Shown piece by piece: positions 2,035-51,642 of a DNA stretch of 64,000 nucleotides. The stretch spans positions 10,543,376 to 10,607,375 of the forward strand of contig CM119271.1 of the NCBI GenBank assembly GCA_051294375.1, given 5' to 3'. The position numbers and the translations under genes are program-made. How positions within the stretch are numbered: the stretch's first letter is position 1; the number at the start of each line of letters is the position of its first letter. Under the pieces are notes generated by a model. It was not told the DNA's origin. It searched no databases and was given only the letters and a program-made list of their open reading frames with translations. This DNA comes from Paraspadella gotoi. Lineage: Eukaryota > Animalia > Chaetognatha.

Positions 2035-4881
2035 TTCGACCGACCGACCCCACCAACGCGGCCCCCAAACCTACCCCCTCCCAAGCCGACAAATCCCTCT
2101 TTCCTTCGACCAACGCCGCGTCCTGCCATTTTCAACAACAACGACAACGACAACAACGCCGACTCCCTCTCGATCGTCTCCTCCAGTTCCTCGCGTCTCC
2201 ACGGCCACGCCCACTTTTACGGAGACGACGACGCGATCCGATTCTCCCTCTCTTCCTCCTCTTTTTCCTCCTCCTCCTCCTCCTCCTCCACCTCCTTCCC
2301 TCCCTCATCTTCAAACCGGCGCCATCTCCGAAACGCCTCCACCGACGCCGCAGCGCCGATTATCCTCGACGCCGTCGACGCCGCTGACGCCGCGAGAGGC
2401 GCCGTTCTTTTCGTCGTCGTCGTCGCCGTTTCGTCCTCGTTGTCCCGGCGTCGTTTCGTTTCGCGCCAACGTGAGGCCGCAGTCTTTTCAAGTGAGTTTG
2501 AAGAAAGTGAGGGAGAAATAAAAAGTAAAAGGTAAGTTAAAAAGATTATAAAAATTTACTCGTTTCACAATTTCAAAGTTTTTTTTTTTACATTTTAAAA
2601 TATTGAATATCTTTGTGGTTTTTTTTTTTTTATTTTTTTTATTTCATCTTTTGTAATTATATTAATTAATTATATAAAAGTTACAAGATTCCTAGTTTTA
2701 CCGTATTTTAACAGTTCTTTAGATTTAAAAGTATAGTTCAATATTTTATGTATTAAACCTTGTTTATTAAAAAAGAATATTATAGACTACAAAAATGAGA
2801 CTATTTTGTCTGTGTTGTCTATTTTCGCCACGCGTCTTCATTACTTTAATCGCCAAGTTTTTTTTTCGTATTAAAGTTGTAGTTTAATTTTTGTTTTAAA
2901 GGTTATTTTTTTATTGTTTGTGGTTGTGATTTTTTTTTTTTAAAACTTGTCAACCGCCAATTAAGTTTGACAATTAAATTAAGTTTGAACATGGTTAGTC
3001 ATAACCAGCTTTTTTTAACTATTGAAATTTATAAAAGGGGGACTGCATATTTGTGGGTCCGTTCAAGAACTATTACGAAATTTAGAATTTTTCGAGGATA
3101 TTTAAAACTGTATTATTTGTGAAAAAAAACCAATACTTTACAATTATTTCTACATTCGACAACTTTTTCTTTCCCTCATTTATCCCTTTCTCAGGCTCGC
3201 GACAACGTTTCCAACTTCATCTGGTGGTGCAGACATCAGATCAAAATCCGCGAGGCGCTTCTCTTCGAAACTGAAGATTTGGTTTTGCAGAAAAACGAAA
3301 AAAACGTGATTCTTTGTCTCATGGAGGTGAGATTGGATTTTTTGAATTAAAAGATTGAAAGATTAAAAGATTATTAATTATTAATTATTAATTAAAAGAT
3401 TAATAGATTGGATTTTTGAATTAAAAGATCGAGCGTTTTACAATCAATTTTTATCTCGTTCTATATTTGAACAAATACACTTGTATAAACTTTTAATCTT
3501 TGAATGATTGAATTATTATATAAATTTACCATTTCAGTAAACCGCTGTATTATTTGCTAATGTTTAGTCTGGGCACTTGTAAATAACTGAAAAATAAAAA
3601 GGGTTCGTCATTTAGGGCTTATTTCATACGGCTTGGTTAATGGGTATATTTTACATTAGAGTTTACTGACATCTCTAAGGGAACAAGTTTCATGGAACAA
3701 AGAAAGTTACAAGTGCAAAAAAAAACAAACAAAAAAACAACATTAAAGTATTAAATAAAACCGCGAACCTTGAACCAACATAAATTTTAATGACCTAGTC
3801 GGGCCAGTCGCTCCAATCTCTTATCTATTAAAAAAACATAACAACCCGGGATAAGAACATTTTTTTTTCTTTGTCAAAAAGTAAATCCTTACTCCCTTCA
3901 TTCTTTGTTAGTTGCGCCACGAGAAATCCCAAAACGTAAGATGCTCATAAATTGGTCGGTCCCTTGATCTGTACCATATACCATCATACCATAATTGCTA
4001 ACTAGATCGGTCCATCCAATGTATTGGGCCGCAGCGACTTTCCTTTCACATGTATTTCTTTGTGATCACATGACTACATGAGTCCAAAATTTATGTATAA
4101 CAAACGTCTTTATATTGTATTTGTATTTATCGGAATTCCGTCTTTCATTCTTTATTATTTTAGAATTTCCTGAAGGCGGCGCGAGCAGTCACTTAGATTT
4201 GAGGTTTTTTTCTGTTTTAACAAATGAGCAACCAACTATAGGAGAGTTATGAGCATTTTTAACGACGGACAGACATACTAACCGACCGACCGATTTATAT
4301 CGATATGAAACATAAAACATTTGTCTATGATTTCATACTTGAATGTGTGCAACATTTTGAAATAGCCGTTCCATATTTTTCTCGTTGACAAACTTCGAAA
4401 AAAAGAGAGAGACAGACGCTTAAATCAACAAAAGTTTTTCCCCTTTCACGACTCTCTCTCTCTCCCTNNNNNNNNNNCTCTCTCTCTCTCGTTTTAAAAT
4501 CACGTTCCCGAAAGAAAAAAACTTTCGCTGTTCAAACTTTGAGAGAAAAATGCACACTTTGCGCGGTTGTTAAGGTGTCCGAGGCACGGCTAGGGCGTTT
4601 ACTGTGTGTTTAATAGGTTTTTTCCTTTTCTAAACTTTGTTGTTTTACTACTCTCCTTAATAATTGTCGATCGATGAATAGTTGAGGAAGGTACTCATTA
4701 ATCAATTACCCGGTGAAACTCCCGAATCTTCACTCGAGTTAATTAAGGAAGTTCAAAATTATATATATTTTTTTCAGCAGTTAAATACGATTATCAAACA
4801 TTTCTAATTCTAATATTCCATTTCCATTTTTCGAATTTTATTTACTTTCAGTTTCTCTTTAGTTTGGACTTATTCAATTAT

Positions 4882-8942: not shown

Positions 8943-11900
8943 CGAGAGCGCTATGATAGGCCCCCATTAGCCTCGGCGCCGGATAGTCTGCCCGGCCCTC
9001 CGGCCTTTATTCTACCTTAGATGAGGTCTCTCTCTCTCTATCTCATTTTCTCCTTTCCTGACCAAAAATGGTTTTTCTTTCTTTTTAACTTTTTTACCCT
9101 TTTGTTTTGTTTTCTCGCCTTTCTTTTTTCTGAGATCTATTCTCTTTTGTTTTCTTCCGCGACCTTTCCGTTGTTCCGCGCGAGGAGGGGGCGGAGGGAG
9201 GGGGGCGTTGGGAGGAGGGCGGAGGCAGGGTGATGAAGTTGACGGGATTTTCTTTCCTAAATCTTTTTCGATTAATCTCGTTTCTTCGCCTCACAGAAAT
9301 AAAAANNNNNNNNNNNNNNNNNNNNNNNNNNNNNNNNNNNNNNNNNNNNNNNNNNNNNNNNNNNNNNNNNNNNNNNNNNNNNNNNNNNNNNNNNNNNNNN
9401 NNNNNNNNNNNNNNNNNNNNNNNNNNNNNNNNNNNNNNNNNNNNNNNNNNNNNNNNNNNNNNNNNNNNNNNNNNNNNNNNNNNNNNNNNNNNNNNNNTTC
9501 TTTTGTTTATTTGTAACTCGGAGGGGAATATATATATCTTCTATTGTCTTTAAATTCATTTATTTTTGAAAGTAGAACATGATTTAGTTTTCGATTTTTA
9601 GTAATAAAAAAGGATTTATAAATCATTATATGTTTCTGAGTGAATGTAAACTATTTATTTAGATCCTGTGAGACGTAAGAAACTGTGAGGATTGACGAGT
9701 CACCCCGAAAGTTTGGATCTTTTGTCGTCTACTGTTTCACACGAGAGAAAGGATTGAGAGTCTGATTTTGCGAAAAGTCCTTTGGATAAATAATAGTTTG
9801 ATTCGCCATTGACCACTGACCGACCGATGACCAGTGACTCAACAAAATCGGGTTTAATCCCCCCCCAAAAAAACCCCATAAATTTTCTGACTACAAAATT
9901 TACTCGTTTGCGAAAGTAACATTTGAGATCAGCGGACCAAACGACATTCTAATTTTCTATATCTTAGTTTTAATTTGTATTTAAATAAAGATACTCAATT
10001 TATCTTTCTGGTTTAACTAGTTTAAGCCTAATCCAATCCCCACGAAGCCCAACTGATCCCTCCGAACCCAATTAACCCTCTCCCCTCGCCCCCGCCCCCC
10101 TCTCTCCAAACTCCAAACATGAAAGGTTCGTAAGGAGCTTCGCCGCTGCTCCTGCCCCAACCAGTTCCTGCTCATCAAGAGAGGCAAAGGAAAATATCAA
10201 GTGGCCGACGATCAGGGGCCCATCATCTTTGTTAGGGTAAGTTAGGCCTGTGGGTCGAGAGTGTGTATTTATCTCAGTTTCTTTCTCTCTCTCTCTCTCT
10301 TTTTCTCTTTTTCTCTCTCTGTCTCTCTTTTTCTCTCTCTCTCTCTCTCTTTTTCTCTCTCTCTCTCTTTTCTCTCTCTCTCTTTTTCTCTCTCTCTTTT
10401 TCTCTCTTTCTATCTCTCTCTCTCCTTCTCCTCTCTCTCTCTCTTCTCTCTCTCTCTTCTCTGTCTCTTTTTTTTTTTTTATCTCTTTCTCTTCTCTCTC
10501 TCTCTTTTATCTTTTTCTCTCTTTTTCTCTCTCTTCTCTCTCTCTCTCTTACTTACTTAAAACTCCCCTTTCCCCCATTCTCAGGTTCTCCGCAGTCACA
10601 CTATGGTCCGCGTGGGCGGAGGTTGGGACACTTTGGAGAATTACTTGGACAAGCACGACCCTTGCAGATGCGCGGTGGAAGGGCGGTCGTCGCGCGTGGC
10701 GTCGTTAACGTCCGGTGAGCGAGAAACAAAATCACCATCACGAAAAGAGGCTAACAAAATTAGTCCAAAGAATCATTTTTAAAAAATAAAAAAATATTAT
10801 GTACATTTTTAAGAAATAAATCTATTCATGAAAAAGTAAGGCAAGATATATAAGTAAACCAAATCAAAAAAATTTGAAATTAAGTTGATTGCTACAATAT
10901 GCAAATGAGACCTTCTTTACAACAACATTGAAAAAATGTGTCAAAAACTCACCTAACGACTCATATGAAATCTCATAATTAAGCATTGGGCACAGGAGTA
11001 GGCTGCCCCTAGCTCAAAAATTAAAATTAACAACTATAACGAGAACGATTAAATTAAATTAAATTATAAAAAAACAAGAACATTTTAAATGGGATGTATA
11101 GAGTAACAATAACCTAAAAAAACATAATCATCAAAAATATAACAATTCTCCCGCCTTCCATTTTAACTTTTAAGATCCCTATCCCACGGTTGTAAAAAAC
11201 GCAAGTAACCTCCCGCCCGCGCCATATACGTCCCGCCAGATTATCCTTTTTTGTTTGCCTCGCTCGCGAATTCGCGTCGTTTCGCTCGACAGAGTAAAAA
11301 AATTCCGGGGGTGCCTGGAAGTAGAGAAGGGGAAAAGATAGGGATGTAGAAGGGAGGTAAGAGAAATTTGTGGGAGAGAGAAAAAGAGGTTAGAAAAGTG
11401 TGAAAGAATTTCGGGCGGCAAAAAAGGGATAAGAAAGACGAACGGACCGACGGATCGATNNNNNNNNNNNNNNNNNNNNNNNNNNNNNNNNNNNNNNNNN
11501 NNNNNNNNNNNNNNNNNNNNNNNNNNNNNNNNNNNNNNNNNNNNNNNNNNNNNNNNNNNNNNNNNNNNNNNNNNNNNNNNNNNNNNNNNNNNNNNNNNNN
11601 NNNNNNNNNNNNNNNNNNNNNNNNNNNNNNNNNNNNNNNNNNNNNNNNNNNNNNNNNNNNNNNNNNNNNNNNNNNNNNNNNNNNNNNNNNNNNNNNNNNN
11701 NNNNNNGAGAGAGAGAGAGAGAGCACGAGACTATAAAAGGAGAAAATGGGTTCGGTCTTTTCAGTCAAAATCCTTTTCCCCGAATTCGTCTTGATTTTTC
11801 TTCCAATTCTCCGATATCCATTTTCCCAATTCATCCATTTTCCCAAATTCATCCATTTTCCGAATTTCTCCATTTTTCCCCATTTTTTCCATTTTTTTGT

Positions 11901-22600: not shown

Positions 22601-25600
22601 AGATAAAAGAAGAGAATAAGAAAAAGTGAAAAAAAATTAAGAGCAAACAATTTTAAATGTTGAAAATAAAATATTAAAACAAATTTTTAAAAGAAAAAAT
22701 CAAGAAAGAGCAGGGGGTTGCAATATTTTAATACATTAAATACCTTTCATTTCTAACCAATAACAAATGACCAGGAAGCGAACACGCAGGGTATTATTAT
22801 AGCTTCCGGGTTCAATCCTTTATTCTCAATTTTTCTATCGCTCCCGGTTTCGGGTTCTTCAAAAATCGGCCGCTTCCACAGTGTTCGCTTACGCTTTCCG
22901 GATCGCTGTCCACATCTCTGGACAGAACCATTCAATATAAGATTAAGCAGTCCCTGAGCTTCGGATCAGGCTGTAACACCGTGTTACAGCCGGGTTAAGC
23001 GCCCCGTCCCTCTTAACTGCAAAGGCTGGTGGATTTTAGTCCATCATACATCTCCCCCTCCTGTAGGGAGAAGTCTTGCGTCTCTTCAGTGAATTGTTGT
23101 TGTTGTTGGAAAGTTCGTCACCAAGTTGAGGCATGTCGCTGATGTGTGATTGGCGGAGAGTGCATCGCCAGGTTGAGGAATGTCGCCTGAAAGTGTTGTT
23201 GTTGTTATGTTTGGAAGTCGGGCTCACCAATGAAGAGGCAGTAATTATTGTTATGTATTAGTGACAGAACCGTTCATATAAAGCAATCCTGAGCTTCGGA
23301 TCAGGCTGTAACACCGTGTTACAGCCGGGTTAAGCGCCCCCCCCTTTAACTGCTAGGCGACCAACGGTTGGTGGATTTTAGTCCACCATACAACCATTCA
23401 TCAGCGGCCATTGTTGGGGAGGCAAGTCATTCGCCTCCCAACCCAAAGGTCCGGGGTTCTAGCCCGGTGGTCGCCCCAGCAGTTAAGAGGGACGGGGGCT
23501 TAACCCGCCTGTAACACGGTGTTACAGCCCGTCTCTTCATTATTAAATATTAATAATTAATTAATTAATTTTTTTTCAGGGTTGTTGGAATACATTACGA
23601 AAAATCTCGAGAAGCGCTATTCAAGGAATTGAGAGCGGGAACTTACGTCTGGGCCAAAGGAGTCGCCAATTTCGTTAAAAAACACGAAAAACTCAACCTT
23701 TTCCGCACAAAAAGTTTTCCTGCGAGGGTGAGTTAAAAGATTTTTCTTTTCTTTGGGGGGGGGAACTCTGAAATCGAATTTGATGCGAAATTGCGACTTT
23801 GTGACGCAGAAAGCGGGGATAAAAGCGCTTCGGTCAAGTGGAAATACGGAGAAGAAATGTACAAGAGTATTCGTAAGAATTTTATGATTGAAAAAAAATT
23901 TTCAAAAAAAAAAAAAAAAATTGGAAAACGTTTTAATGTTTTTCTACAACGACTTTATTTGTAAAAAACGTACATGTTTGGGCTTACATACAAGCCTTCT
24001 TCAGCGTTAACAAATTTTTACAAAACAAAAAAACAAAAAAAAAAAAAAATTTGTTAACGCTGAAGAAGGCTTGTATGTAGCGAAACCGTACGTTTTTTTA
24101 CAAATAAAGTCGTTGTAGAAAACATTAAAAACGTCAACCACAACGAAAAGAAGGAAATTCACGATGAAAAAAAAAATTAAAACGCTGAAATGAAAGAACA
24201 AATCTCTTTAATAATTCAGAAATGTCAGCGTGACATTCGAGGGCTGACAAAGGATTTGAAAATGGCCGATAATAAAACTGTGGACTTTAACGAGGACGGG
24301 ACGGTGCGTTCCGTGGATTTAGTCATCATCAACTTGAATCGGGAGAGAACTTGGGATAAGATTGGCGAGTTCAGAGGTGATCGATGATAATGCCTAGTAT
24401 GTATTGACCTTATTTTATTTCAAAATATGAACATGAGCTTGACCTGCTGTGTCATTATCTTGTAAGAGTGAGGGAGACCTTAATCCACCATAGCTTGTCC
24501 AAAGTCACAGGCAAGATAGCTATTTATTAAATGAATGGATAATTTAATATTGGTTGTACCATATACATACGTGTAATTGATTCTCTAACGTCAAAGCGCT
24601 ATTCAAATATATTCTTAATATTTATTTTCTCTTAATTACGGTATTTTAAACTTTATACACCCCTGCAAGGAACTTACTTGGAGATAAAGGATATCGTTTG
24701 GCCCGGGGGATCGAGAACTCATCCGATCGGAAGACCGGAGCGATATCAATTGACCATCGTGACTCTCAGAGAAGAACCTTACGTTTTTCTCAAAAAAATG
24801 GATCCGAAATTGGACAAGTGAGATTAGAAATGTGCCGGGCAACACTGTATAGTAGGGTGGAGTGATGAAAAGATTAAGCGAGTTAATAATATTTTTTATG
24901 TAATTAATATGTAATTAAAGAAAATCATGCCTTTTATAAAAAAATTTTAGCATAACAGTAGAGCAAATTGTATTTTCTTTGTAACAATATCCTTATAAAA
25001 TTTTTAAATTTCAAATTGATTTTTTAAAAATTTTAATAACAGATTGAAAAAAATAATAAACTTTTATAAAATATGTTATATGATATTTTAATGTTAAAGC
25101 TACGAAAAATGATAAAAATGGTTTATAATATAATAGATTCTATTACAAAAAGTTCAAAAGTTGAGATTTTTTTTTCTAATTTTGTTACTGAAGACAAATA
25201 AATTTATATTTTTTGTCCAACTTTTTATAAGAAATTTGATCTTTAAAAAAATTTTAAAAAATTATTTTGAAATTTTTTTATTTTATAAGGATATTACTAT
25301 AAGTATATTGTATTTTGCTTTTCTGTTCACAAAATAATATTAACAAAATACTTTTTATATTTAATAATCATGATGAAGACTCTAAACAAAAAGAGTCGAA
25401 ACATAGTTTAATTGAGGCTAATCGGTTTAAATTTTTTTTAGATGTTCATCGGTTAACGACAAGCCTTGCTTCGTTCCGAGATTGGGTCTTCCATCTGACG
25501 TGACCAACTTGACTGACTTATCACTCGCTCTTCAGAATGGAACCGAAATTCAGGGACTTAACTACACAGGTGAAATTGACAATTTGAAAAGTCATGCACA

Positions 25601-28600
25601 CCCTGATAGATAATAGATATTAAACTTGAATGTTTTAAGGTTGTAAGAGGGTTGGAGTTTGGTTAAGACAACCATACTTCACATCATGTCCATCACATCA
25701 TTGTCCACTCTTCAGTGTCTTGTTTCATAATTATAGTGAAAGGTTGTTTATAATTTGCTTGTGACACTTTTGAAAGATTGTAAGACGACAACGCAGTTAA
25801 TAAAATTGACATATTGATTATCAAAACAAATTATCAATGCCTTTCTCACGCGATTTTTATCAATTTTTTTTTATTTTTCGATGCAGAGGAAAAGTATTGT
25901 TGCTCTGGATTTTGCATCGATCTTTTGGAGAAACTTGCGGAAGAAATTGGATTCGACTTCAAACTTTATCAAGTGGAAGATCAAAAGTGGGGATCTAAGA
26001 ACGAAAACAACGAATGGAATGGCTTGATCAAGGATTTGGTAGGAAGATTGGAATAAAAAGATTTGGTATGAAGATTTTAGGGAGGAAAACAATTTATTTG
26101 TTTTGTTTCAACGAATTTTTTAGGACAAAATTCGTTGAAACAAAACATTTGGTAGGAAGATTGGAATAAAGAGAATGAATCAAGGATTTAGTAGATAAAA
26201 AAATTGATGTATTTAGTATGAAGATTGAAATAAATAGGATGGCTTGATCAAAGGTTTGGTAGGAAGAGTCGGAATAAAAAAAAAGGCTTGATCAAGGATA
26301 TAGAAAAAGATTGACCGAGGCTAAATAAATGAAATAGCCTTGTTCTGGATTTATTAGAAAGAAAATAATATTAAGAATGCTTTTATCCATGATTTCATGG
26401 AAATTTGGTTCATAATAGTTTAACATGTATAGATTTTAGTAAAAATTCGGTGGAATAATTAAAATGACATTTGTAACGTCACGCAACCACATCAGGTTGT
26501 TGGTAAAGCCGACATGGCAGTCACATCCCTCAAAATAACAACCGAAAGAAGTCAGGCCATAGATTTTTCAATTCCCATTCTGGAAACTGGCATAACCATC
26601 GTCGTCCTCATCAAGTAAAGAAGTGAAAATAGTTACATTAACAGAAACAAGGAACGGTTATTCCAAGGTGTTGCGCCGCATTACTTTTGTTTTTACTTAT
26701 CATGTCATTTATTACTTATAGTTTATAAGATTTCTTTAAAAAACAAAAGGCGGCGCCAGTAGTCACTTAGATTTGATTTTTAACAAATGAGCAACGAACT
26801 ATAGGCGAGTTATAATGTAAGTGGGACAGACCGACGGATAAACATACTGACGGACCGACCGACCGAAAAGTGACTTATAGAGTTGCTCCGCTAGTACTCG
26901 CGGCTAAACTAAAAAAGAGCTTTTACAATAATGTAACCGTCGTTGATTGCAGAGAAGGAAATATTTCCGCGACGGCGTTTCTGGAACCGTTTGAACTGAC
27001 CTCCTGGATCCTGATCTTGGTCGTCTGTGTGCACGCGGTCGGTGTGGCCATGCTGCTTTACGAATGGCTTAGTCCTTATGGGTAAGTCGAAGCTTTATAG
27101 TCGGGAATAGACTGACCGACCGGTCGATCGAAACGACTGTGACCGTGGAGAAAAAGCTTACCTCCTTTGAGGAGCTCGCGTTAGACTGTAAGATAGTGGA
27201 AGCTGAGAGCAAGCAACCAAGTTTAAAAAAGAAATTATTTATTTATTTGTTTAGTTATTTATTCATTCATTTATTGAAACTTCGAAATACATAGAATTAC
27301 TAAAACATCATTCAGCGAAACGGCCAGAGACCGGATTTTATTTAATTTTAACATATTTTAGTATAAATAAGTTATATCTTTATTTTTCTTCCGACTCATC
27401 AGGTACAATCTCCGTAGCCAGCCGCCCAGAGGCCACCGGTTCTCCTTTTTCCGCGCCCTCTGGCTTATTTGGTCCATGCTCTTCAAAGCGGCCGTGAATG
27501 TCAACTTCCCTAAGGGAATGGCGGCGAGATATCTGACAATGGTTTGGGCTCTCTTCGCAGTGGTGAGTTTGAAATGTGACACAGTTGGGGGAGGGGGTTC
27601 AACAATTTTAGGAAGAGTAATATATCAAGCTAGATATCGTGGATTAGTTAAAGAATTTGTTTTTTTTATCACTTTAGGTGTTTTTGGCATCGTACACTGC
27701 TAACTTGGCCGCTTTCATGATTGCCAAAGAGGAATTTTGGCAATTGTCTGGTAAGCGTTTAGTATTTTTTTTATCAATAAAATTGGTAATATTGATATTG
27801 ACTTTGATAATTCGATTGAAATTCAACGGACGCGCTACAACTAAGTTGGAAAATTTGTCGGGAAAGACTACATGCTTAGTTGTTTACTAATCTGTCCGTT
27901 TGTTTGCTCGTTTATATAATTATTAATTTATTAATTAATTCATTTAATCATTTTTTTTTCATTTCTCTTTGAATGGTTTTTCATTTTATTTATTTATTTA
28001 TTCATTGCTAAAAGTTTTTTTTATTATTAATTTATCTATTTGTTTTTATTGTTTAATTTTTTTTTTTCATCTCTCTAGGAATTAGGGACAAGAAGTTGGT
28101 CGAGGCGGCGACGCAGAATCCTCCCTTCAGATACGCGACGGTGAGATTCGGCGCCACTGAGGCCACACTTGCAAAGAACTACCCAGAGATGAACGAATAT
28201 ATGAACGTGAGTATTCATCTCTCATCTCTCTCGTCTCAATCACATCTCTTTTCATCACTTGACTTTTTTTTCGGTCTCTGCTTTTTACTATATATCGTCT
28301 CTCTTTGAAATTTATTTCTTTTTTAAAAATCACGTCTCATCTTTTTGTTTATATCGTCTTAATATCTTGATAACTTATTATTTCATTACATTTTATCTCA
28401 TTGTAAAATCATCTCGTCTTGTCACTCGTTAACAATGACTGATTCTCAATCTCATCTCATCTGATCTTATCACAATATCCACTCAAATTTAAACAAATCT
28501 TAACATCATGATCATCTCATCTCTTTGAATTTCATTTAGTTATAAATATTATTTACAATATCATCTCGGGGTTATTTCTATTGCTCTTTTTTAATGGGTG

Positions 28601-31600
28601 GTTTCTATATAAATTATAAGTATATCGCTACCTCTATATCCAACTGCACTTAATTTTAAATTTTTACTTTCCACAAAAAAATTTTAAAAAACCATGGCCG
28701 TTAACAAAAATGTATATTATTGTTTTGTTATCATTATTGATATACAATTATGAAACAACGTGAGCTACTATATCACAAAAGAAAAAAAAATGACACATTT
28801 CCTCGTTCAGCTACGAACCATCCAAAAAAAACATCAACTAGCCCCTCAACTGCAACTACAACTGTTTTTTTTTTTTGTAAAAATGTAAAGTATTTTATGG
28901 CTACAGTAAATTCATTCGTTTTTTTTCTCTTTCTAATTTACTGCCCGTCAGACGATTTTTCTCTCTCTGATCATTATATTGGAATGTCGAAGTATGTTGC
29001 CGTGTGTGTGATTGTATGTGTGTGTTCGTTTGGGAAAAAAAAACAAAAGAACTATCATAGTTTGACTTCGAACGTTTTAGCGACGACGTCGGGTTTGAAC
29101 GGATTGCACTTTTGTTGAATTTGCAGCGACGAGTCTCGTTTTACGTCGGTGACGTTGAGAGTCGCTGGTTCGCTCGGTTTGGGTATGTTCGCCCATCGGA
29201 CGTTGAAAGGGTCGAAGTCCGCGATGACGGGCGAGGTTTCGACCTGGCGAGGGGTTTAGTGTTTGTTTCGATTAGTTTAAATGTTTAGAGCGTTTATACG
29301 GAGTGTTATTTTGACGAGTAATTACCTGGGCAGTGGTTAAACTACCCGGATAGGTAGTGCTCGTGTGAATCGATCCGTTTTGTTGAGCTGGAACGTTTTG
29401 AAAAATATCCCCAAATTAATATAATAGTAAAATGAATAAATAGAAATTAACATTTTTACCATAATCATTTGCGAAAGATGGAACTTCGTTTTCGGGAATC
29501 GTGCTTGGAGCGTTTATAGTATTTGACCTGTTAAAACAAAAATGAACTACCTTGTCTGTCTGTCTGTTATGTTTTGTCGTGCGTTTTATTTTTTTGGTCA
29601 AACGAGCCATATATTTTTGTTTATTTTTTTAGTTTATATTTCGTTACCGCTGGTTGCGTCGTTGGACGTTGGACGGCAATTCGTTGACTCGAAGAGAGAG
29701 TTGCCTCTTGAAGGGCGAGACCGTCTGATTGAGGGTCGGAAATCCGCGGAACGAACCCTGTCGCTCAAACATTTCCGCGGACGTTTGGGGGCGTGGCATG
29801 GCGAACTGTAGATCCGGACCTGATTTGGTGGGGAAGAAGGGAGACGTGGAGGCCCCAAGGGGGTTCGACGGGAGATTTTGAAATATCATTTTTGGACTGA
29901 GTGTCCCCTTTCTATTTTTTTTTTATCCGAGAATTCAATTTTAACTAAATATATTTTTAAACTTGTTTGTTTCAGAGTCATGATTTTGGCAGAAGATTTA
30001 GTAGTTAATAGTTTGATTTGGTCTTTGTATTCCAATAACGTAAAAGAAAACAAATTATTTCTGGAGATAACATGATATTTATTTTTAAATAAGCACTGAT
30101 CTTCAGAGACTTCTGTCTCTCAAGGTTGCATAACACCTTGTTATGCATGTAAATAATTTGTTTTCTTTTATATTATTTTTAAACTTATCTCTAACCCTAA
30201 TCTCTAACCCTAACTAAAAAACCCTTATCACTAATTTCTAACCTTATCTTTAACTCTAGTTTATAACCCAAATCTCTAACCTTAAGCACTAACCAAGTCC
30301 TTGACCTTAACTGCGAATCTAATACCAAACCTAATCCCAACCTTTATTCTAATCCGAATTTAAGATAATAAAATGGGGCGTTCTGGGAAAATAAGGCCTA
30401 TTTTTGTTGACCGATTGAAGAGGGGATGTATTTAGTAAATTCTGTTCGTTTGTAATGCGGAGCTTTATGTCACGTAATTGACCCGAATTAGCTAATTGAC
30501 GAAATCATTGGTGTCAGGGACTTTTGACTTTTCTTTCTGCAAGGTTCTTCAAGCCATCGTGGCAATCTGACCTTAAATTTGGACACGGAATATTTAAAAA
30601 AATGGAACTATTGCGGCTTGTAATTATTTATCCCTATTTAATATTTTTTTTATCATTTATTGTGAATATATTGTGTTCTTTAAACGAAGAATTATTCTTT
30701 TCAAATCTCAGTTGCTCTTGGTAAAGTTGCTCCTGGTTTTTTAAGCAAAGAATGTGACTTGATGATGATAACTAATCGGTAATTTTGATTATGACGAATG
30801 ATAATAATAAAATAATAATATAATAATGATAATAATCTGACGACCAACCTGGCCTCCTTTCCGGAACCGCTTCCGTTATCACAGCTGACTGCGGATCCGC
30901 CATTTTCTCCGTCAATGTCATTTGCCTGAAGGAGCCGGTTCGAGCAAAAGCTGTTTTGTTTTCGTCGAAAGAAACGGTGACCTGAAGAAAAAAAAGGGAA
31001 ACAGTTTTGTAATTCGATTAAATATATAATGAATTTAAACTCAAAAATAATATTATTATAGTTAAAGATAGTTCAATTTTATGTCATTTTTTGTTTTTTT
31101 AACCAATCACCTTTCATTCGAGTCGTTAAATCTTGATTTAACCAACCCTATTTATTAAGTTTGTTCATTATTTATAGTGTATTTATTCTTTTTTTAAATT
31201 GCATATGATTCAAATCCATCCAATGACTTATATTACTCAATCAAAGAAAATCAATTTATGCAATGCCCGACTAAATATAATGCGTCCTCCCTAAAACTCT
31301 TTTTTTTTCGTATTAATACTATTATTATTTCTTTTTTTAATCTTTAAATCTTTATTAATACTGAGGCGGCTAACTTGTCGTCTTCGTCGTTGTTGTTGTT
31401 ATCAGCTTCTACAATACTATTATCATTTCTTTTTTTAATCTTTGTACATAAAAGTTTGAAAATCATAAAAATCTTATCGGTTTATTTACCTCGCATTCTT
31501 TGTCTCTCTTAATCTTCCTCTCGAGACAAAGTGCAAAAGCGCAACCGACCGCGTGGCTCAGGCGTTCGCCTGTTTAACAGGGAGAATTACGATATGATTA

Positions 31601-32130
31601 ATAGATTATAATTAATATAAAAGATTTTGATCAAAATATATATTATATAACGCGAATCACTGCTGTATATATTCGAGTTATGTCACATTTTGCGGTTTTA
31701 ATTAACGTCCGGGCGGAACGAAATATCATTCTTCCGTGACAAAACTGGACCGAGCACGAAATGAAAATATGAAATGCATTTCCTGATTTCGCTAATTTAA
31801 TAAGTCGTTGACACTAATTTTTTTGCACGCCATTGTCTCTAGACGGATTGACTGCAAAATGAATCGATAAAATTACCGACAATTAATGAATGATTAGCGG
31901 TAATTAGAGATATAGATGAATATAGATTAATATAGAGAGAGAGAATTTTTTTTACGAAACGGATTTGTCTTCCAAGGACTGACAGACTAAAAGCTCGAAA
32001 GGATGGACCGACGGACAAACATACTAACAACTATATATAGATAGACAGACAGACAATCGGACAGACCGGACAGACGCGATCAAGGTAGACTTACAGGCAA
32101 ACGAGCAACGAATGAATGAAATAAAGAAAG

Positions 32131-32220
<90 letters not shown>

Positions 32221-43855: not shown

Positions 43856-45770
43856 ATCAATTCAAGAGACTAGACGCTTAATCATTGATTTATGTTTCAA
43901 TTTTGTTTAACTAGTAACTAGATCTATTATTATGCTCTCTGTCCCTTACAATAATAATTGTCGATTACCGAGAATAAAAACGGTAATAATTTGCCCTCTC
44001 TCAATTCCGCTCAAATATCCGGTTTTTCCTGTACTTGATGTCGTGATTAATCTTTTGAAAAGTACATATGGATGAGGCAGAATTTGAAGCGAATTGAATA
44101 ATTGGATTGTAAATTAAAATGTAAACCTGTCGCTGTAATGTTCTGGACTAATCTTAGCTAAAGAATCAAAAGTGTTTTATTCAATATTTACCAATTCATT
44201 GCTTATTTCAAGATGTTTCTCTATACTTTAGTCATTTAATGTGTTAATTAATTTAATTAATTTAATTTATTTTACCATTATTGTTATCACTTCTGAAAAG
44301 AATTTGCTAAATACTGCAGCTACGTATGTACTTTTATAATTGTTAACGTTATTTAGGTTGCTGTGTTAGATGCACAGTAGCGATATCTGGAGTATATATC
44401 CTTTTAACTAAGAATTTGATGACTACGGAATAATAAATATTCGTATTTCTTATTCAACATCCACAAGTTATGAAATTACACTATTCTGGTGAAAAATTTC
44501 CAATTTTAAATACTTATTTATAATCTTATATCAAGATCTTCTTGAATTCTCGATTTTTATGCTGGCATAAATTTTGAAAAATGAGTTGTTAAGGAATACC
44601 GCGCTAATACGTACCGAAATCGAGTTTTATTGTTGATCAGAATCGAATCAAAGGTGGAAAACATTTTTAAATTCATAACCATGTGCTTGAAGTAAAAGCT
44701 ATCCAATGACATAAAGCTTTTTCTGGTCATTATCGTTGAAAAATAAGTTAGAATTAAAGGCAATATTGCTAGCTGCTTGTCGTTTTCTGCTGCAATCATA
44801 CTAGAAATTAGACACCTGCAGTTTGTAAGAGAAATTGGTATTGGTGTTGACTTTCGCATAACATTGACCTAATAAAAATGGTTTTTATTCACTATTCAGC
44901 CAAATAAGATACATACTAGGGATACAATGACAAATGACATCCGAAGTAATAAAATATATTTTAAAATTAAATTTCTTTGTTGCAAAATCAATGAAAAAAA
45001 AACACACTGGAACAAGCAACAGACGAGACGTGAAAGTTTTAATTTCTCGATATAATGGATAATCTTTTTGCAACGTTAAGGAAACAATCTGTATCAATGA
45101 ACATATGTTGTTTAATGTTTATTAAACAGTAATTTGTTTATCCGTAACCAGGGATCGATTAGTACGAGAGACTTTTATTCTTTTTTCTGAGGAGGAAGTG
45201 AGGAGAGACTCCTATTGATGAAGAGGAAAAGGACCGGCCTAGTCAATAGAAAGAGGAAGAGGAAGATATCCTCTTCCGTCATGCCGCCGCCGAGGAAAAA
45301 AGAAAATGGACGTCGCCTTCCTGAGCTGATGATAAAATTTGACAATTTCGTTCATTAGAAAAATTGAGAAACAATTATTGTTTATGCGGATAATATGAGT
45401 ATATATGTGCGTGGTGGTTTCTCCTGATCGTCTAAATACATCACGGAAAATGAATTTGACGGAATCGTGGCGCTTTCTAAGATCAGTTTGTCTTTACCGA
45501 TTGAAAAGTAAGGTACAAGATGCTTATTTTTGGTTTCATTTTAGAGAAAGGGTGTAGCGGGTTGGGGGTAGTTATTTATGAAGAATCGTTAAAGCACAAT
45601 TAGCTGTTACTTATTGCGTTTCAATTCTTTTAAGCATTGTTTACAAATTAAACATTTTCAGACCTATATGTAGAACTTTTGATGAGAATTACGATTTGAT
45701 TTGTGATTTCAGATTACCAAAGATTTGCCTTATTGAAGCTCGTACTTTTGATGTCCTGTAATTAAGAACA

Positions 45771-48435
45771 ATGCATATAAAGCACTTGAAAACCATCGTC
45801 CCTCCCCAAGAGGGCGCGGCAAAGATACAAGCTTTGGCTTGGGCACCCAACAGTCAAAAATTAGCCGTCTGTAACGCGGATCGAATCATCTCTCTTTATG
45901 ATGAATACGGCGAACGCAAGGATAAGTTCGCCACGAAGCCCATCGAGGCCAGATTCGGCCGCCGGAGCTATGTAGTGACCGGGCTGGCCTGGTCTCCCGA
46001 CTCTACCAAGCTCGCCGTGGCCCAATCCGACAACATCATCTACGTCTACAAGATCGGCGAAACCTGGGGAGACAAAAAGGTCATCTGCAACAAGTTCGTC
46101 CAGCAAAGCGCCGTCACTTGCATCTGTTGGCCGCCCGATCAACACATCGTCTTCGGTCTCGCCGACGGCAAAGTCCGCATCGCCAATACGAAGAATAACA
46201 AGTCCAACACCGTCTACGGCACGGACTCTTTCACCGTCGCCGTCACCCACAACGTCTCCGGCAAGGGTATCCTCTCCGGACACATGGACGGCACCGTCGT
46301 CCGTTACTTCTTCGACGACGAAGGCAGCGGCGACGCTCAGGGCAAATTGCTCAACCACTCCGTCCCGCCCTACGCGCTCGCCTGGGCGCTCAACTCGATC
46401 GTCATCGGCGGATGCGACCGCAAAGTCGTCGCCTACGGGAGAGACGGAAAAGTCATCCAACAATTCGACTACAGTCGGGATCAGGACGAGAGGGAGTTCA
46501 CTTGCGCAGTTCCCTCGCCCAGCGGACAATCGGTGGTCATGGGATCCTACGACCGTCTGAGGATTTACAATTGGAGTCCTCGCAAGGGTCAGTGGGAAGA
46601 GTCGCGCAGCAAGGATATCCCTTACCTCTATACCATCAGCTGCTTGAGTTGGCGCAAGGACGGATCCAAGCTCGTTTGCGGCACGCTTTGCGGCGGAGTG
46701 GAGACCTTTGACTGCTGCCTCAAGAGAACCATCTACCGCAACAAGTTCGAGATGACCTACGTGGGATTGAGTCAGGTCATCGTGAAGAATCTCTCCACCG
46801 GGTCGCGCGTCGTCCTCAAGTCTCACTACGGTTACGAGATCGACGACGTCAAGATTCTCGGCAAAGATCGATACTTGGTCGCCCACACGACGGACACCCT
46901 CCTCCTCGGCGATCTCCAGACCAACAAGCTCTCCGAGGTTGCCTGGCAACGCAGCGCCGCCGATGCCGCCAAGGAGAAGTTCTACTTCGACAACGACAAC
47001 GTTTGTCTTATCTTTAACGACGGGGAGTTGTCGCTCGTGGAGTACGGCGCCAACGAGATCCTCGGCAGCGTCCGGACGGAGTTCGTCAACCCGCACTTGA
47101 TCTCCGTCCGCATCAACGAGCGGAAAGTCAAAGAGTCGGACGAGAACAAGAAGATGGCGTATCTAGTGGATCTCAAGACAGTCGCCATCTTGGATCTCGT
47201 GTGGGGAATCAACGTCGCCCACGTGACCCACAACCACAAGATCGATTGGTTGGAGCTCAACGAGACGGGGAGGAAGCTGCTGATCAGGGACAAGCAGCTC
47301 AAGCTGTATCTCTACGACATCGCCACGCAGCAGTTGACCACGATGCTGCAGTATTGCTCCTACGTGCAGTGGGTGTTCGGGTCGGACGTAGTGGTGGCGC
47401 AGAATCGCGGGAATCTATGCGTTTGGTACAACATCGACGCCCCGGAACGCGTCACCATGTTCCCCATCAAGGGCGACATCGTGGAGATCGAGCGGGAGAA
47501 AAACCGGACGGAGGTGATCGTGACGGAGAACGTCTCCACCATCTCGTATCGCTTGGATGAAGGCCTCATCGAGTTCGGCACCGCCATCGACGACGGCAAC
47601 TGGAGTCGCGCCGTCAAGTTCCTCGAGGGGCTGGAGATGACGCCGGAGACGGAGGCGATGTGGAAGACGCTCGCCAAGCTGCTCCTCGAGAACAACGAGC
47701 TCGGATTCGCGGAGAGATGCTTCGCCGCTTTGGGCGACGCCGCCAAGTGTCGCTACTTGAGGGAGTTGAATCGGATCGTGGACGAGGAGGATCGATTGGC
47801 GGGGACCAAGACGGGGATCAATCATTATCGAGTCCGCGCTCGGTTGGCCGTGCTGGAGAAGAATTTCAAAGACGCCGAGGATATTTATCTGGAGCAGAAT
47901 TCCGTCGATGAATGCATTCAAATGTACCAAGAGTTGCACATGTGGGACGACGCCATCGCAGTGGCCGAGGCTAAATCCCATCCGAGGTTGGTTTTGGACT
48001 TTTTTTTCAACTGTCGTAAATGGGGAAAAAGCATTGCTTACGTTTAATCAATATCGTTTTGATAAAATAATAATAATAATATTCGTCCAAGTAAATCTGA
48101 TGATTTTTTTCAGATTCTTTCATTATTTTTCTTCATACTATACTATACTATGAAATTGGTACAACCAATATAATAATTATCCATTCATTTAATAAATAAG
48201 CTATCTTGCCCCTGACTTTGGACAGGCTTTGGTGGTTTAAGGCCTCCATCACTCTTACAAGATAATGACATAGCAGGTCCCTGCAAGCTTTCAATCAAGA
48301 CTCTCTCACAGTCCCGTTAATTCACTCCCAGAGTATAGTACTATAGTATACTATAGTATACAAAATAGAAAAATATCGTTTATTTGAAAAATTCTTTAAA
48401 AAAGGAAAAAAATGAATTCCTTTTTAGAAGACTGA

Positions 48436-48481
<46 letters not shown>

Positions 48482-51400
48482 GAAAATGCATAATGAAATG
48501 TAATTAAATTGAAAAACTAACGGAAGTTTTAAATTATATTTAGAAAACTTTTTTCTTTCACCCAAGGTTGGACGAACTCCGTTCCAACTTCTACAAATGG
48601 CTGACGGAATCTTCCCAAGAGGAAAAGGCCGGCGAATTGAAGGAACGTGAAGGGGATTATCTCGGCGCCGTCGATCTCTACCTTCGAGCGGGTCTTCCGG
48701 CGAAAGCGGCGGCTCTGGCCACGACCAGACCAGAAGTCCTTAAACATGACGACGTCGTTCAACGCATCGCGGCCATTCTCATCAAGGGAGAATTCTACGA
48801 ACGCGCCGGCGACCTCTTCGAACACGTCCGCGAAAACGACCAAGCGCTGGAGTGCTATCGCAAAGGCAACTGCTACCGCAAGGCCGTCGATCTGGCTCGG
48901 TCCAAATATCCGCCGAAGGTCGTGAGGCTGGAGGAGGAGTGGGGCGACTACCTCGTCCTCCACAAACAGCTCGACGCGGCCATTAATCATTTCATCGAGG
49001 CCAACGCTCTCGTCAAGGCCGCCGACGCCGCGATTGGCTCTCGCCAATGGCAGAAAGCCGTGCAGATCGTGGAATTGCTGGATCCGGCCACGGCGGAGAA
49101 ATACTTCAAGAAATTGGCCGAACACTACGCGTTCGTGGAGGATTTCGACAACGCGGAGAGATTCTTCGTCGCCGCTGGATGCATCAAGGACGCCATCCAA
49201 ATGTACAACGAAGCCAGTCGCTGGGAAGACGCCCACCGTCTCGCCTCTCGCTGCATGGACGCCAAGGAGGTCTCCGAGCTCTACCAACGCCAGGCGAGGA
49301 AATTGGCTGAAGAAGGTCGATTGAAGGAAGCGGAGCGTCTCTACATCACTGTCCGGGAGCCGGATTCGGCAATCGCCATGTACAAGCGAGCCAAGCAGTA
49401 CGACAACATGATTCGTCTGGTCAAGCAGTATCATCCCGATTTGCTGCAGGATACCTACATCCACGTAGCCAAGGAAGTGGAGAACGAAGGCAAGCACAAG
49501 CAAGCGGAGCACTTTTACATCGAAGGCGGTGATTGGCGCGCCTGCGTCAACATGTACCGTAACGCGGACAACTGGGAAGAGTGCTACCGAGTCGCCAAGA
49601 CTTTCGGCGGGAATTCTGCCTCCAAACAAGTCGCTTATCTTTGGGCCAAGAGCCTCGGCGGCGACTCGGCCGTCAAGTTGCTCAGCAAGTTTGGTCTCCT
49701 CGAGCAGGGAATCGATTATGCGATGGAATCTTATCATTTCGATTTCGCTTTCGAGTTGGCTCGATCCGCGATGACGTCCAAAATGGCCGACATTCATTTC
49801 AAGTACGCCATCTTTCTCGAAGACGAGGGTCGCTTTCGTGAGGCTGAGGCGGAGTTCGTCAAAGCCTCGAAGCCGAAGGAGGCCGTCCTCATGTATGTGC
49901 ATCAGCAAGACTGGGACGCCGCCCAGCGGGTCGCCGAGGAGCACGATCCTAAGTCCATGTCCGACGTGCTTGTTGGTCAGGCGAAGATTGCTTTCGACAA
50001 CAAGGACTTTGCCAAAGGCGAGTCGTATCTGCTCCGCGCTCAGCGGGCCGAACTTTGCATCCAATTGTACAAAGAGCTCAACATGTGGAAGGACGCGTTG
50101 AGAGTGGCCAAGGAGTATTTGCCAACTCAATTGGCGACGACCCAAGCGGAATACGAACGAGAAGCACTCAGCAAAGGCGCTCGCGGAACCGAGGCTCTCA
50201 TGCAGCAAGCCAAAGAGTTTGAGAATACAAATCAGCACGCCAACGCTGCCAAGCTTTACATCAAGATTGCTCTTCAAAGCGACGCGGACGGCAACAAAAA
50301 TAACAGCAACTCGGCCAATCAAGCCGTCGCTTGCATTCTCCGCGCGGTGGATATTACCTGCAAGTTTCTGGAGCCGCAGCACACGACCTCGGTGGTAAAG
50401 ATGGCGGCACCGAAGCTCCTCGCGATGGAGCGCTACACCGAAGCGGCCAAGATCTTTGTCGCTGCAGGAATGGAGAAGGAAGCCGCCGACGCCTTTATAC
50501 AGGGTGGGGATTTTCCCAGAGCGCGGCAGTTGGCGAAAGAGACGGACCCTAAACTGGAGGCTTACGTGGAACAACGTTACAAATCGTCGTTGGTGGCGGC
50601 AGGAAAGGCGGAGGCGTTGGCTACGGTCGACGCCGGCGCCGCCCTCGATCTTTTCGTCGAGAAGGGCGAGTGGGACGAATGCATCGCCACCGCCGAGAAA
50701 CAGGGCTACAAGGTTCTTCACAAATACGTGGCTCTTTACGCGAGCAAGCTGATCAAGGAAGGAAACGTTGAGAAGGCGCTCTCTCTTTACGCCAAGCACG
50801 GTGCTCCGACGAATCCAGAAAATCACAACATCTACAAGCGGTTGGCGCACGAGCTCTTTTTCGCCAAGTCGATGAACAAAGCCTCCGCTTATCAAACGTG
50901 GGCCAATCTCCGCGACGTCCTGCACGACCTCTGTGAGAATTTCGGCAAGAGTTCTGAGAACAACTCGAAGACCCACAAAGAGTTCGAGTCGCTGCTCATC
51001 GTCGCCCACTTTTTCGCCATCCGCTCCGCCTGTCAGAGTCAAAAGGCGTTGGAGGCGCTCGCCGTCAAAGTCACCGTCTCGATGCTGCGCTACACGGAGC
51101 ACATTCCGGCCGACAAGGCCTTCGTGGAAGCCGGCATGGCATGCAAGGCCATCGGATGGGAGAACATGGCTTTCGTCTTCCTCAACCGGTTCCTGGATTT
51201 GCACGAGGCGATCGAGGACGGGAGTCTCGACGCCGTCGACAATTCCGACTTCAAAGACACCGACATTCCCTTCGACGTTCCGCTGCCCGAAAAGCCGCAT
51301 CTCAGCGACGCCGAACACGACGAGATCAAGGAGTGGGTCCTCACCGTCTCGATGGACGCCAAGGTGGAGCAAGTGCTGCCCAAAGACGAGAGAGGAGTCT

Positions 51401-51642
51401 ACGAAGCTTCCCTCGTCGCTCCGGACACGGGCATTCGATCCCTGCCCTGCGTCATTTCCGGATATCCCGTCCTGAGAAACAAGCTGGACTTTCGTCGTCC
51501 CGGCCGCGCCGCCAACAAGGAAGATTGGAACAAGTTTGTGATGGCGATGAAGTCGTCTCACAGTTCGGAATGTCAGGACGTCTGCAAATTTATCGGGCAG
51601 TGGTGCGGAACGTCTCCCAATCCCACTTATAATTTTCAGTGA
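45771..51642 (+). CDS. IFT172: Intraflagellar transport protein 172 (WD40 + TPR-like), 1763 aa, single intron 47987-48566
   Basis: MHIKHLKT…[12 protein letters not shown]…DKFATKP…[11 protein letters not shown]; exons 45771-47986 and 48567-51642 join in frame (5292 nt); C-terminal CVISGYPV…[18 protein letters not shown]. Confidence 0.98.

Follow-up and report, generated by a model that had tools for sequence, protein, structure and literature searches.

A 64,000 nucleotide (nt) stretch of the genome of the chaetognath Paraspadella gotoi (contig CM119271.1, positions 10,543,376 to 10,607,375; hereafter the window, with coordinates counted from its first letter) contains an expressed gene for a GluN2-type subunit of an NMDA (N-methyl-D-aspartate) receptor, and this gene encodes a germline lysine at the tip of the pore loop, unedited in the one assembled RNA contig that spans it. 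The asparagine that vertebrate GluN2 subunits carry at the pore tip is central to Ca2+ entry through NMDA receptors and to their block by Mg2+, the basis of coincidence detection, and we think it fairly probable that the lysine lowers the Ca2+ permeability, the Mg2+ block and the unitary conductance of the receptor to which the subunit contributes.

The lysine codon is AAA at 27485–27487 on the forward strand (tcttcAAAgc at 27480–27489), in frame within the exon for the M2 pore loop, and the frame around it translates as [21 protein letters not shown]. The exon (27403–27562) is preceded by AG and followed by GTGAGT, and its translation matches PF00060 (Lig_chan; E-value, 1.6e-7); an RNA contig joins 27080 to 27402 and 27561 to 27677, and both joints read GT..AG after a one-base shift. 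When the exon was compared with PDB chains using phmmer, query residues 4–54 aligned with GluN2A 590–640 and residues 6–54 with GluN2B 593–641. Since both alignments are ungapped, the lysine (query residue 28) corresponds to GluN2A N614 and GluN2B N615, the N site, and the alanine that follows it to the N+1 asparagine. The Asn-Asn pair typical of the vertebrate pore is thus replaced by Lys-Ala, and the conserved aspartate six residues beyond the lysine (+6) is an asparagine. An earlier note on this DNA, made without database searches, had claimed a genomically encoded lysine at the pore site of a GluN2 subunit, and the in-frame codon, the ungapped alignment and the agreement of the contigs described below all bear it out. 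No second M2-like exon that might act as an alternative cassette was found within the 64 kb, the next best tblastn match having an E-value of 0.08.

The codon was compared over 26400–28300 in four of nine matching sequencing runs, drawn from three studies: DNA runs X5, X6 and X8, from samples not flagged as the source of the window, and run X9, labelled ‘RNA?’. All of these data are assembled contigs, in which rare variants are dropped, and variants are listed at a 5 % share. DNA contigs cover the codon at 27362–27579 (X5), 27356–27762 (X6) and 27324–27494 (X8), and each reads AAA with no other letters. The RNA contig, 655 nt long at a depth of 29.9, comprises pieces at 26495–26614, 26953–27080, 27402–27561, 27677–27749 and 28078–28207, again with no other letters; the third of these covers the codon, which also reads AAA. 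Because its joints are GT..AG, this contig represents a spliced mRNA of a gene on the forward strand, and the joined exons form an open frame of 205 residues running from S1 through M1, M2 and M3 into S2. No variants at 27485–27487 are listed at a 5 % share in the contigs of the four runs, and neither CAA nor AAC, the readings that the earlier note named as refuting its claim, occurs in them. The lysine codon is germline-encoded and expressed.

The gene was mapped by tblastn with five long GluN2 relatives as a single forward-strand gene, with exons for S1, M1, M2, M3, S2 and M4 that extend from roughly 24.6 to 37.8 kb and are split by one large intron of some 7.5 kb, from 28.2 to 35.8 kb. Approximate exon cores for the start of S1 (24678–24800, beyond the listed RNA pieces) and for a further part of S1 (25898–26041; PF10613, E-value 2.8e-15) are followed by the exon that ends the S1 ligand-binding lobe (26496–26614), which coincides with the RNA piece at 26495–26614, is joined to 26953 by a GT..AG joint after 26614, and also matches PF10613 (E-value, 5.3e-9). 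The pre-M1/M1 exon (26953–27081; RNA piece 26953–27080) has 54–58 % identity to flatworm and oyster GluN2 by tblastn. Downstream of the M2 exon lie the M3 exon (27678–27750; RNA piece 27677–27749), which carries an intact SYTANLAAF gate motif and matches PF00060 with an E-value of 4.9e-4, below the curated cut-off, and the first S2 exon (28079–28206; RNA piece 28078–28207), with 38–45 % identity by tblastn. The remaining cores were placed approximately by tblastn beyond the large intron: S2 cores at 35788–35871, which includes the motif DAFIYD, and at 36546–36731, the pre-M4 region and start of M4 at 36936–37031, and the end of M4 with the start of the C-terminal tail at 37662–37760. These features make up the architecture of an ionotropic glutamate receptor (iGluR).

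The GluN2 assignment is consistent across every exon tested. The top 60 PDB matches are all GluN2A–D for the M2 exon, all GluN2 for the 26496–26614 exon (query 4–37 on GluN2A 504–537) and all GluN2A or GluN2B for the 36546–36731 core (best E-value, 4.7e-12), and the 20 matches of the DAFIYD exon are likewise all GluN2, although weak (best E-value, 0.28), with DAFIYD itself identical to GluN2D; GluN1 and GluN3 never appear. A serine and an arginine in S1, which align to GluN2A S511 and R518, and a Tyr-Asp pair in S2 are present, and we take these residues to be glutamate contacts. In a phylogenetic tree the gene falls inside a clade of proteins named NMDA 2B-like by their sources. Together with the Pfam matches and SYTANLAAF, these observations uphold the earlier identification of the gene as one for a GluN2-type NMDA receptor subunit. 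No second GluN2 was found within the window by tblastn, and candidate upstream exons near 17.7–24.4 kb gave no Pfam match (for the one piece tried) and no tblastn match at an E-value of 0.01. We note that S1 (26496–26612) also has a lysine at the position of GluN2A T513, with the same S-L-K-I wording in another GluN2 with lysine at the pore tip (P0059), and the agonist pocket may therefore not be the same as in vertebrates. A high-copy repeat (26645–26915) occupies part of the intron that precedes the M1 exon; there the summed contig depth climbs from tens into the thousands or beyond in all four runs, with many variant contigs and with loose ends rich in GACA and GACC units.

How unusual the lysine is can be judged from its relatives. 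A query of 54 residues (27404–27565, the exon plus one read-through codon that matches the first valine of the next exon) was scored against 1.84 billion protein representatives, giving 198 matches at an E-value of 0.001 or less. Among the best 150 of these, the residue at the lysine position is Q in 61, G in 39, N in 28, K in 10, S in 9, R in 2 and P in 1, such that K or R occupies the site in 12 of the 122 representatives that lack asparagine there. All 28 Asn rows (28 of 144 rows) have Asn-Asn; one is from Branchiostoma (P0146) and the others have vertebrate-like wording. Asn-Asn is absent from the G, Q, S, K and R rows, and in all of the non-Asn types N+1 is alanine, except that S, V or T stands there in three rows. 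The comparison motifs of the earlier note were also recovered, VF-NN-SV in 28 of the 150 representatives and a motif of the LF-Q-AAV type in the Q rows. LF-Q-AAV is the motif of Drosophila NR2.

Taxa could be attached to 17 rows with organism names among 30 that were looked up. Glycine is found in flatworms (Macrostomum, Paragonimus, Opisthorchis/Clonorchis), bivalves (Magallana, Solemya, Ruditapes), Littorina, a tick (Amblyomma), a sea spider (Nymphon), a millipede (Chamberlinius, two genes) and a horsehair worm (Gordionus); glutamine in a shrimp (Penaeus) and an ostracod (Cyprideis); serine in Bulinus and Haemonchus; and asparagine in Branchiostoma. Since the site varies among Q, G and S in protostomes and Lys or Arg recurs, vertebrate Asn-Asn is the wrong baseline for this gene. 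The earlier note had held that its reading would fail if lysine were common in related invertebrate GluN2 with ordinary permeation; the recurrence half of this was found, in the 12 of 122 representatives just mentioned. Lysine at this site is a minority state of a position that is variable outside deuterostomes, rarer than ordinary and not unique. In a full-text literature search, with supplements and one key evolutionary review outside its scope, no paper was found that describes an invertebrate GluN2 with Lys or Arg at its N site, and the Q/R/N site of NMDA2A is termed ‘otherwise invariable’ in one publication (PMC12226733).

The 12 K/R representatives derive from ENA, JGI or NCBI contigs. 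When they and the window sequence were grouped over 39 flanking positions at 70 % linkage, the 13 rows fell into seven sequence groups, the nearest non-K/R neighbours of which are either G-type (0.67–0.92 identity) or Q-type (0.82). The nearest neighbours are G-type for P0017 (0.92) and P0079 (0.90), Q-type (0.82) for the group of P0059, P0060 and P0089, which has arthropod-like M3 wording, and G-type at only 0.67–0.69 for the group that includes the window. Because different K/R groups have different G- or Q-type neighbours, the positive residue appears to have arisen several times, with the proviso that the rows are cluster representatives and not independent samples. Other changes in the loop accompany it. 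Valine at −4 occurs in eight of the 13 K/R rows (P0059, P0060, P0089, P0079, P0092, P0107, P0122 and P0138) and in none of 131 others; aspartate at +6 is retained in only 6 of 13 K/R rows, compared with 34 of 38 G, 55 of 55 Q and 9 of 9 S rows, the window's group having asparagine; and glutamine at +9 is present in 4 of 13 K/R rows and in no others. These linked changes may mean that the loop has been co-adapted or re-modelled around a charged tip, the correlation being one among related rows.

Two ENA contigs of 717 and 758 nt (P0001 and P0002) carry near-identical M2 exons that differ from that of the window at one of 53 residues (Arg to His), and both have the lysine. The intron read-through translations flanking the exon differ among the window, P0001 and P0002, which thus represent three genomic contexts, and the presence of lysine in all three suggests that the exon is under constraint. 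When the M2 exon was used in word-index protein searches, these two were the only close relatives found. Two metagenome-contig loci (L001 and L002) considered as related DNA were rejected as chance matches, as they contain stops and are without iGluR context. At greater distances, a GluN2 tree of 33 rows places the window gene in the unresolved polytomy at the base of the protostome-type clade, as a long branch (1.07) outside the starred arthropod–nematode and flatworm–mollusc clades; over the 374 columns used, it is at most 56 % identical to any row. The grouping with the flatworm/mollusc clade has a branch support of 55, and approximately unbiased tests give p-AU values of 0.056 when the gene is held with flatworms and 0.037 when it is held with the arthropod/nematode clade. 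The M2–M3 wording is closest to that of the flatworm rows ([26 protein letters not shown]).

The expected consequences of the lysine follow from its position. In a GluN1/GluN2 tetramer, two lysine ammonium groups would lie at or beside the narrowest constriction, where they would repel divalent cations, and the carbonyl oxygens by which Ca2+ is dehydrated and hydrated Mg2+ is held would be removed; the asparagine in place of aspartate at +6 would shift the charge of the loop further positive. The resulting receptor would be a glutamate-gated, mainly monovalent and weakly voltage-dependent channel, in parallel with edited GluA2(R) in AMPA receptors and with GluN3 in vertebrate NMDA receptors. 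Several published results are consistent with this. A 2026 cryo-electron microscopy (cryo-EM) study of GluN1a-2B reports that the pore is narrowest at the two Asn615 residues of GluN2B, that these contact partly dehydrated Ca2+, and that hydrated Mg2+ sits just above them, with N615Q altering block (PMC13246513). In GluN2B N615I, external Mg2+ has no effect and ICa/IKrebs is 11 % versus 53 % (PMC5840332). GluN2A N615K shows negligible Mg2+ block and a four-fold lower conductance, and one such subunit in triheteromers has intermediate effects, including on block (PMC6418762). GluN3 subunits, which carry G-R at these sites (R-R in human GluN3B), confer insensitivity to Mg2+ and a low permeability to Ca2+ (PMC2974739), and an AMPA receptor of Hofstenia with a genomically encoded pore arginine has a linear current–voltage relation (PMC13520880).

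None of these systems matches the chaetognath gene exactly. With vertebrate GluN2A–D it shares a pore loop of equal length that aligns without gaps, both M2 tryptophans, [10 protein letters not shown], the S511 and R518 equivalents and FIYD in S2, and it departs from them in having Lys-Ala for Asn-Asn at N/N+1 and lysine for T513 in S1. With the G-, Q- and S-type protostome GluN2 proteins it shares alanine at N+1, the LF-x-A-A/S-V loop pattern and a P-K/R-G motif, and differs from them in lysine for G, Q or S and in asparagine for the near-universal aspartate at +6. GluN2B N615I concerns the identical position and GluN2A N615K the same residue change one position along; however, both are de novo pathogenic variants in an Asn-Asn background, whereas the chaetognath lysine is a fixed wild-type residue in a Lys-Ala context. 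As in GluN3A/B, edited GluA2(R) and the Hofstenia AMPA receptor, a positive residue lies at the pore tip or beside it, which in those proteins lowers Ca2+ permeability, and in GluN3 and Hofstenia this residue is genome-encoded, as it is here (PMC2974739, PMC13520880). Unlike the glycine-binding GluN3 and the AMPA-type subunits, however, the window gene is GluN2-type by every exon tested, and its residue is lysine rather than arginine, at the N site itself.

Several considerations weigh against a strong effect of the lysine on permeation. Mg2+ block in Drosophila depends on the asparagine of NR1. Protostome GluN2 subunits are without both asparagines (N+1 being alanine), so that their filter may be shaped differently, the GluN2 tip may count for more or less than in vertebrates, and the GluN1 asparagine may dominate. 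The mammalian lysine data concern the neighbouring N+1 site (GluN2A N615K), and the substitutions found for the exact site are confined to Ile, Gln and Gly; a glycine at the NR2B N site leaves PCa/Pmono at 2.0 versus 2.3, and NR1 contributes more (PMC2974739). If these points prevail, the lysine would be mild in its effects, its side chain turned off the pore axis or buried in a re-modelled loop, with the GluN1 asparagine setting permeation and block in an ordinary protostome NMDA receptor. The NR2B glycine result fits this, as does the tolerance of Q, G, S, K and R at the site across protostome-type GluN2, and the linked changes at −4, +6 and +9 could accommodate the side chain. Nevertheless, we regard a mild lysine as rather unlikely, since the homologous GluN2B residue is the narrowest constriction in the cryo-EM structure (PMC13246513), Mg2+ block disappeared and the Ca2+ current fell when isoleucine stood at the same site (PMC5840332), and lysine one residue along had these effects too and reduced conductance four-fold (PMC6418762); furthermore, the +6 aspartate has been lost rather than gained in this lineage, such that the charge is left uncompensated.

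It is also conceivable, if improbable, that the subunit acts as a modulatory partner, similar to GluN3 or GluA2(R), in triheteromers with a second, canonical GluN2. This would be a special case of a lysine that lowers divalent permeation. The long branch outside the starred clades would suit such a specialized subunit, the millipede represented by two GluN2 genes offers a precedent for a pair, and single GluN2A N615K subunits confer intermediate block in triheteromers (PMC6418762). Set against this, there is no second GluN2 in the window, and the long branch may only reflect a poorly sampled lineage.

The earlier note had further suggested that the AAA codon might be recoded by adenosine-to-inosine (A-to-I) editing, and this finds no support. 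Recoding to Arg, Glu or Gly could place another residue at the tip in neurons, and a doubly edited codon would encode glycine, the commonest residue in the nearest relatives. The codon region (27480–27493, encoding F-K-A-A) is indeed an inverted repeat of part of the M3 gate (27707–27720, encoding A-A-F-M) over 14 nt (86 %; perfect core, 9 bp), and this is the only exon–exon pair that touches the codon. However, 21 such inverted pairs in 1251 nt is the level expected by chance, the fold of 27390–27690 is no more stable than those of shuffled sequences (z, +1.12), and the spliced RNA contig reads AAA with no alternative contig listed at a 5 % share. The RNA and DNA codons are thus the same at the contig level, which is not the pattern of an edited site of the GluA2 Q/R type, and we consider recoding very improbable, although a single assembled RNA contig from one run is blind to partial or tissue-specific editing. 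That the AAA is an assembly or sequencing error, or that the gene is a decaying pseudogene, is scarcely credible despite the 927 N in the window and the partial coverage of the gene by the listed RNA pieces, given the same codon in contigs of RNA and of the three unflagged DNA samples, a spliced frame open over 205 residues, homologous exon cores that are all without stops, and a lysine exon kept in two other genomic contexts.

Other features of the window are unrelated to the pore. A second spliced transcript is nested on the opposite strand within the 7.5-kb GluN2 intron (28777–34328, minus strand), represented by a 1748-nt X9 contig at a depth of 95.4 with at least eight CT..AC joints, each of which reads as GT..AG on that strand; it marks a nested gene. 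On the forward strand, the only Rfam match in the window is a full-length gene for U2 spliceosomal small nuclear RNA at 43285–43477 (RF00004, 180.9 bits). The IFT172 (intraflagellar transport 172) gene follows on the forward strand as two very long open frames of 761 and 1032 codons (45762–48044 and 48544–51639), a near-intronless organization quite unlike that of the GluN2 gene with its many small exons. Its product is 63–71 % identical to the 120 relatives listed, which range from amphioxus to molluscs, and a tree built from a set that lacks IFT172 of flatworms and arthropods places it on the side of the protostomes, in a polytomy shared with Priapulus and outside the annelids, nemerteans and molluscs. 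The 927 N are assembly gaps at 1420–1680, 4330–4570, 9300–9510 and 11180–11730, none of them in GluN2 exons, and CT/GA and other short-unit repeats are abundant beside them.

Protostome GluN2 as a rule does not have the Asn-Asn motif of vertebrates, and a wild-type GluN2 with lysine at the tip, expressed, conserved in related genomes and paralleled elsewhere, is a natural experiment on the mechanism by which NMDA receptors handle Ca2+ and Mg2+. Such a natural variant could show to what extent the handling of divalent ions is governed by GluN2 or by GluN1 in animals other than vertebrates. More tentatively, it is possible that several protostome lineages, this one among them, have independently fixed lysine or arginine at the narrowest point of the GluN2 pore, with recurrent changes in the loop (valine at −4, loss of aspartate at +6, glutamine at +9), and so made NMDA-type receptors that are low in Ca2+ permeability and escape Mg2+ block. 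If so, GluA2 Q/R editing and GluN3 would have in these receptors a convergent counterpart that is genome-encoded, and gating by glutamate and glycine would be uncoupled from coincidence detection in those animals.

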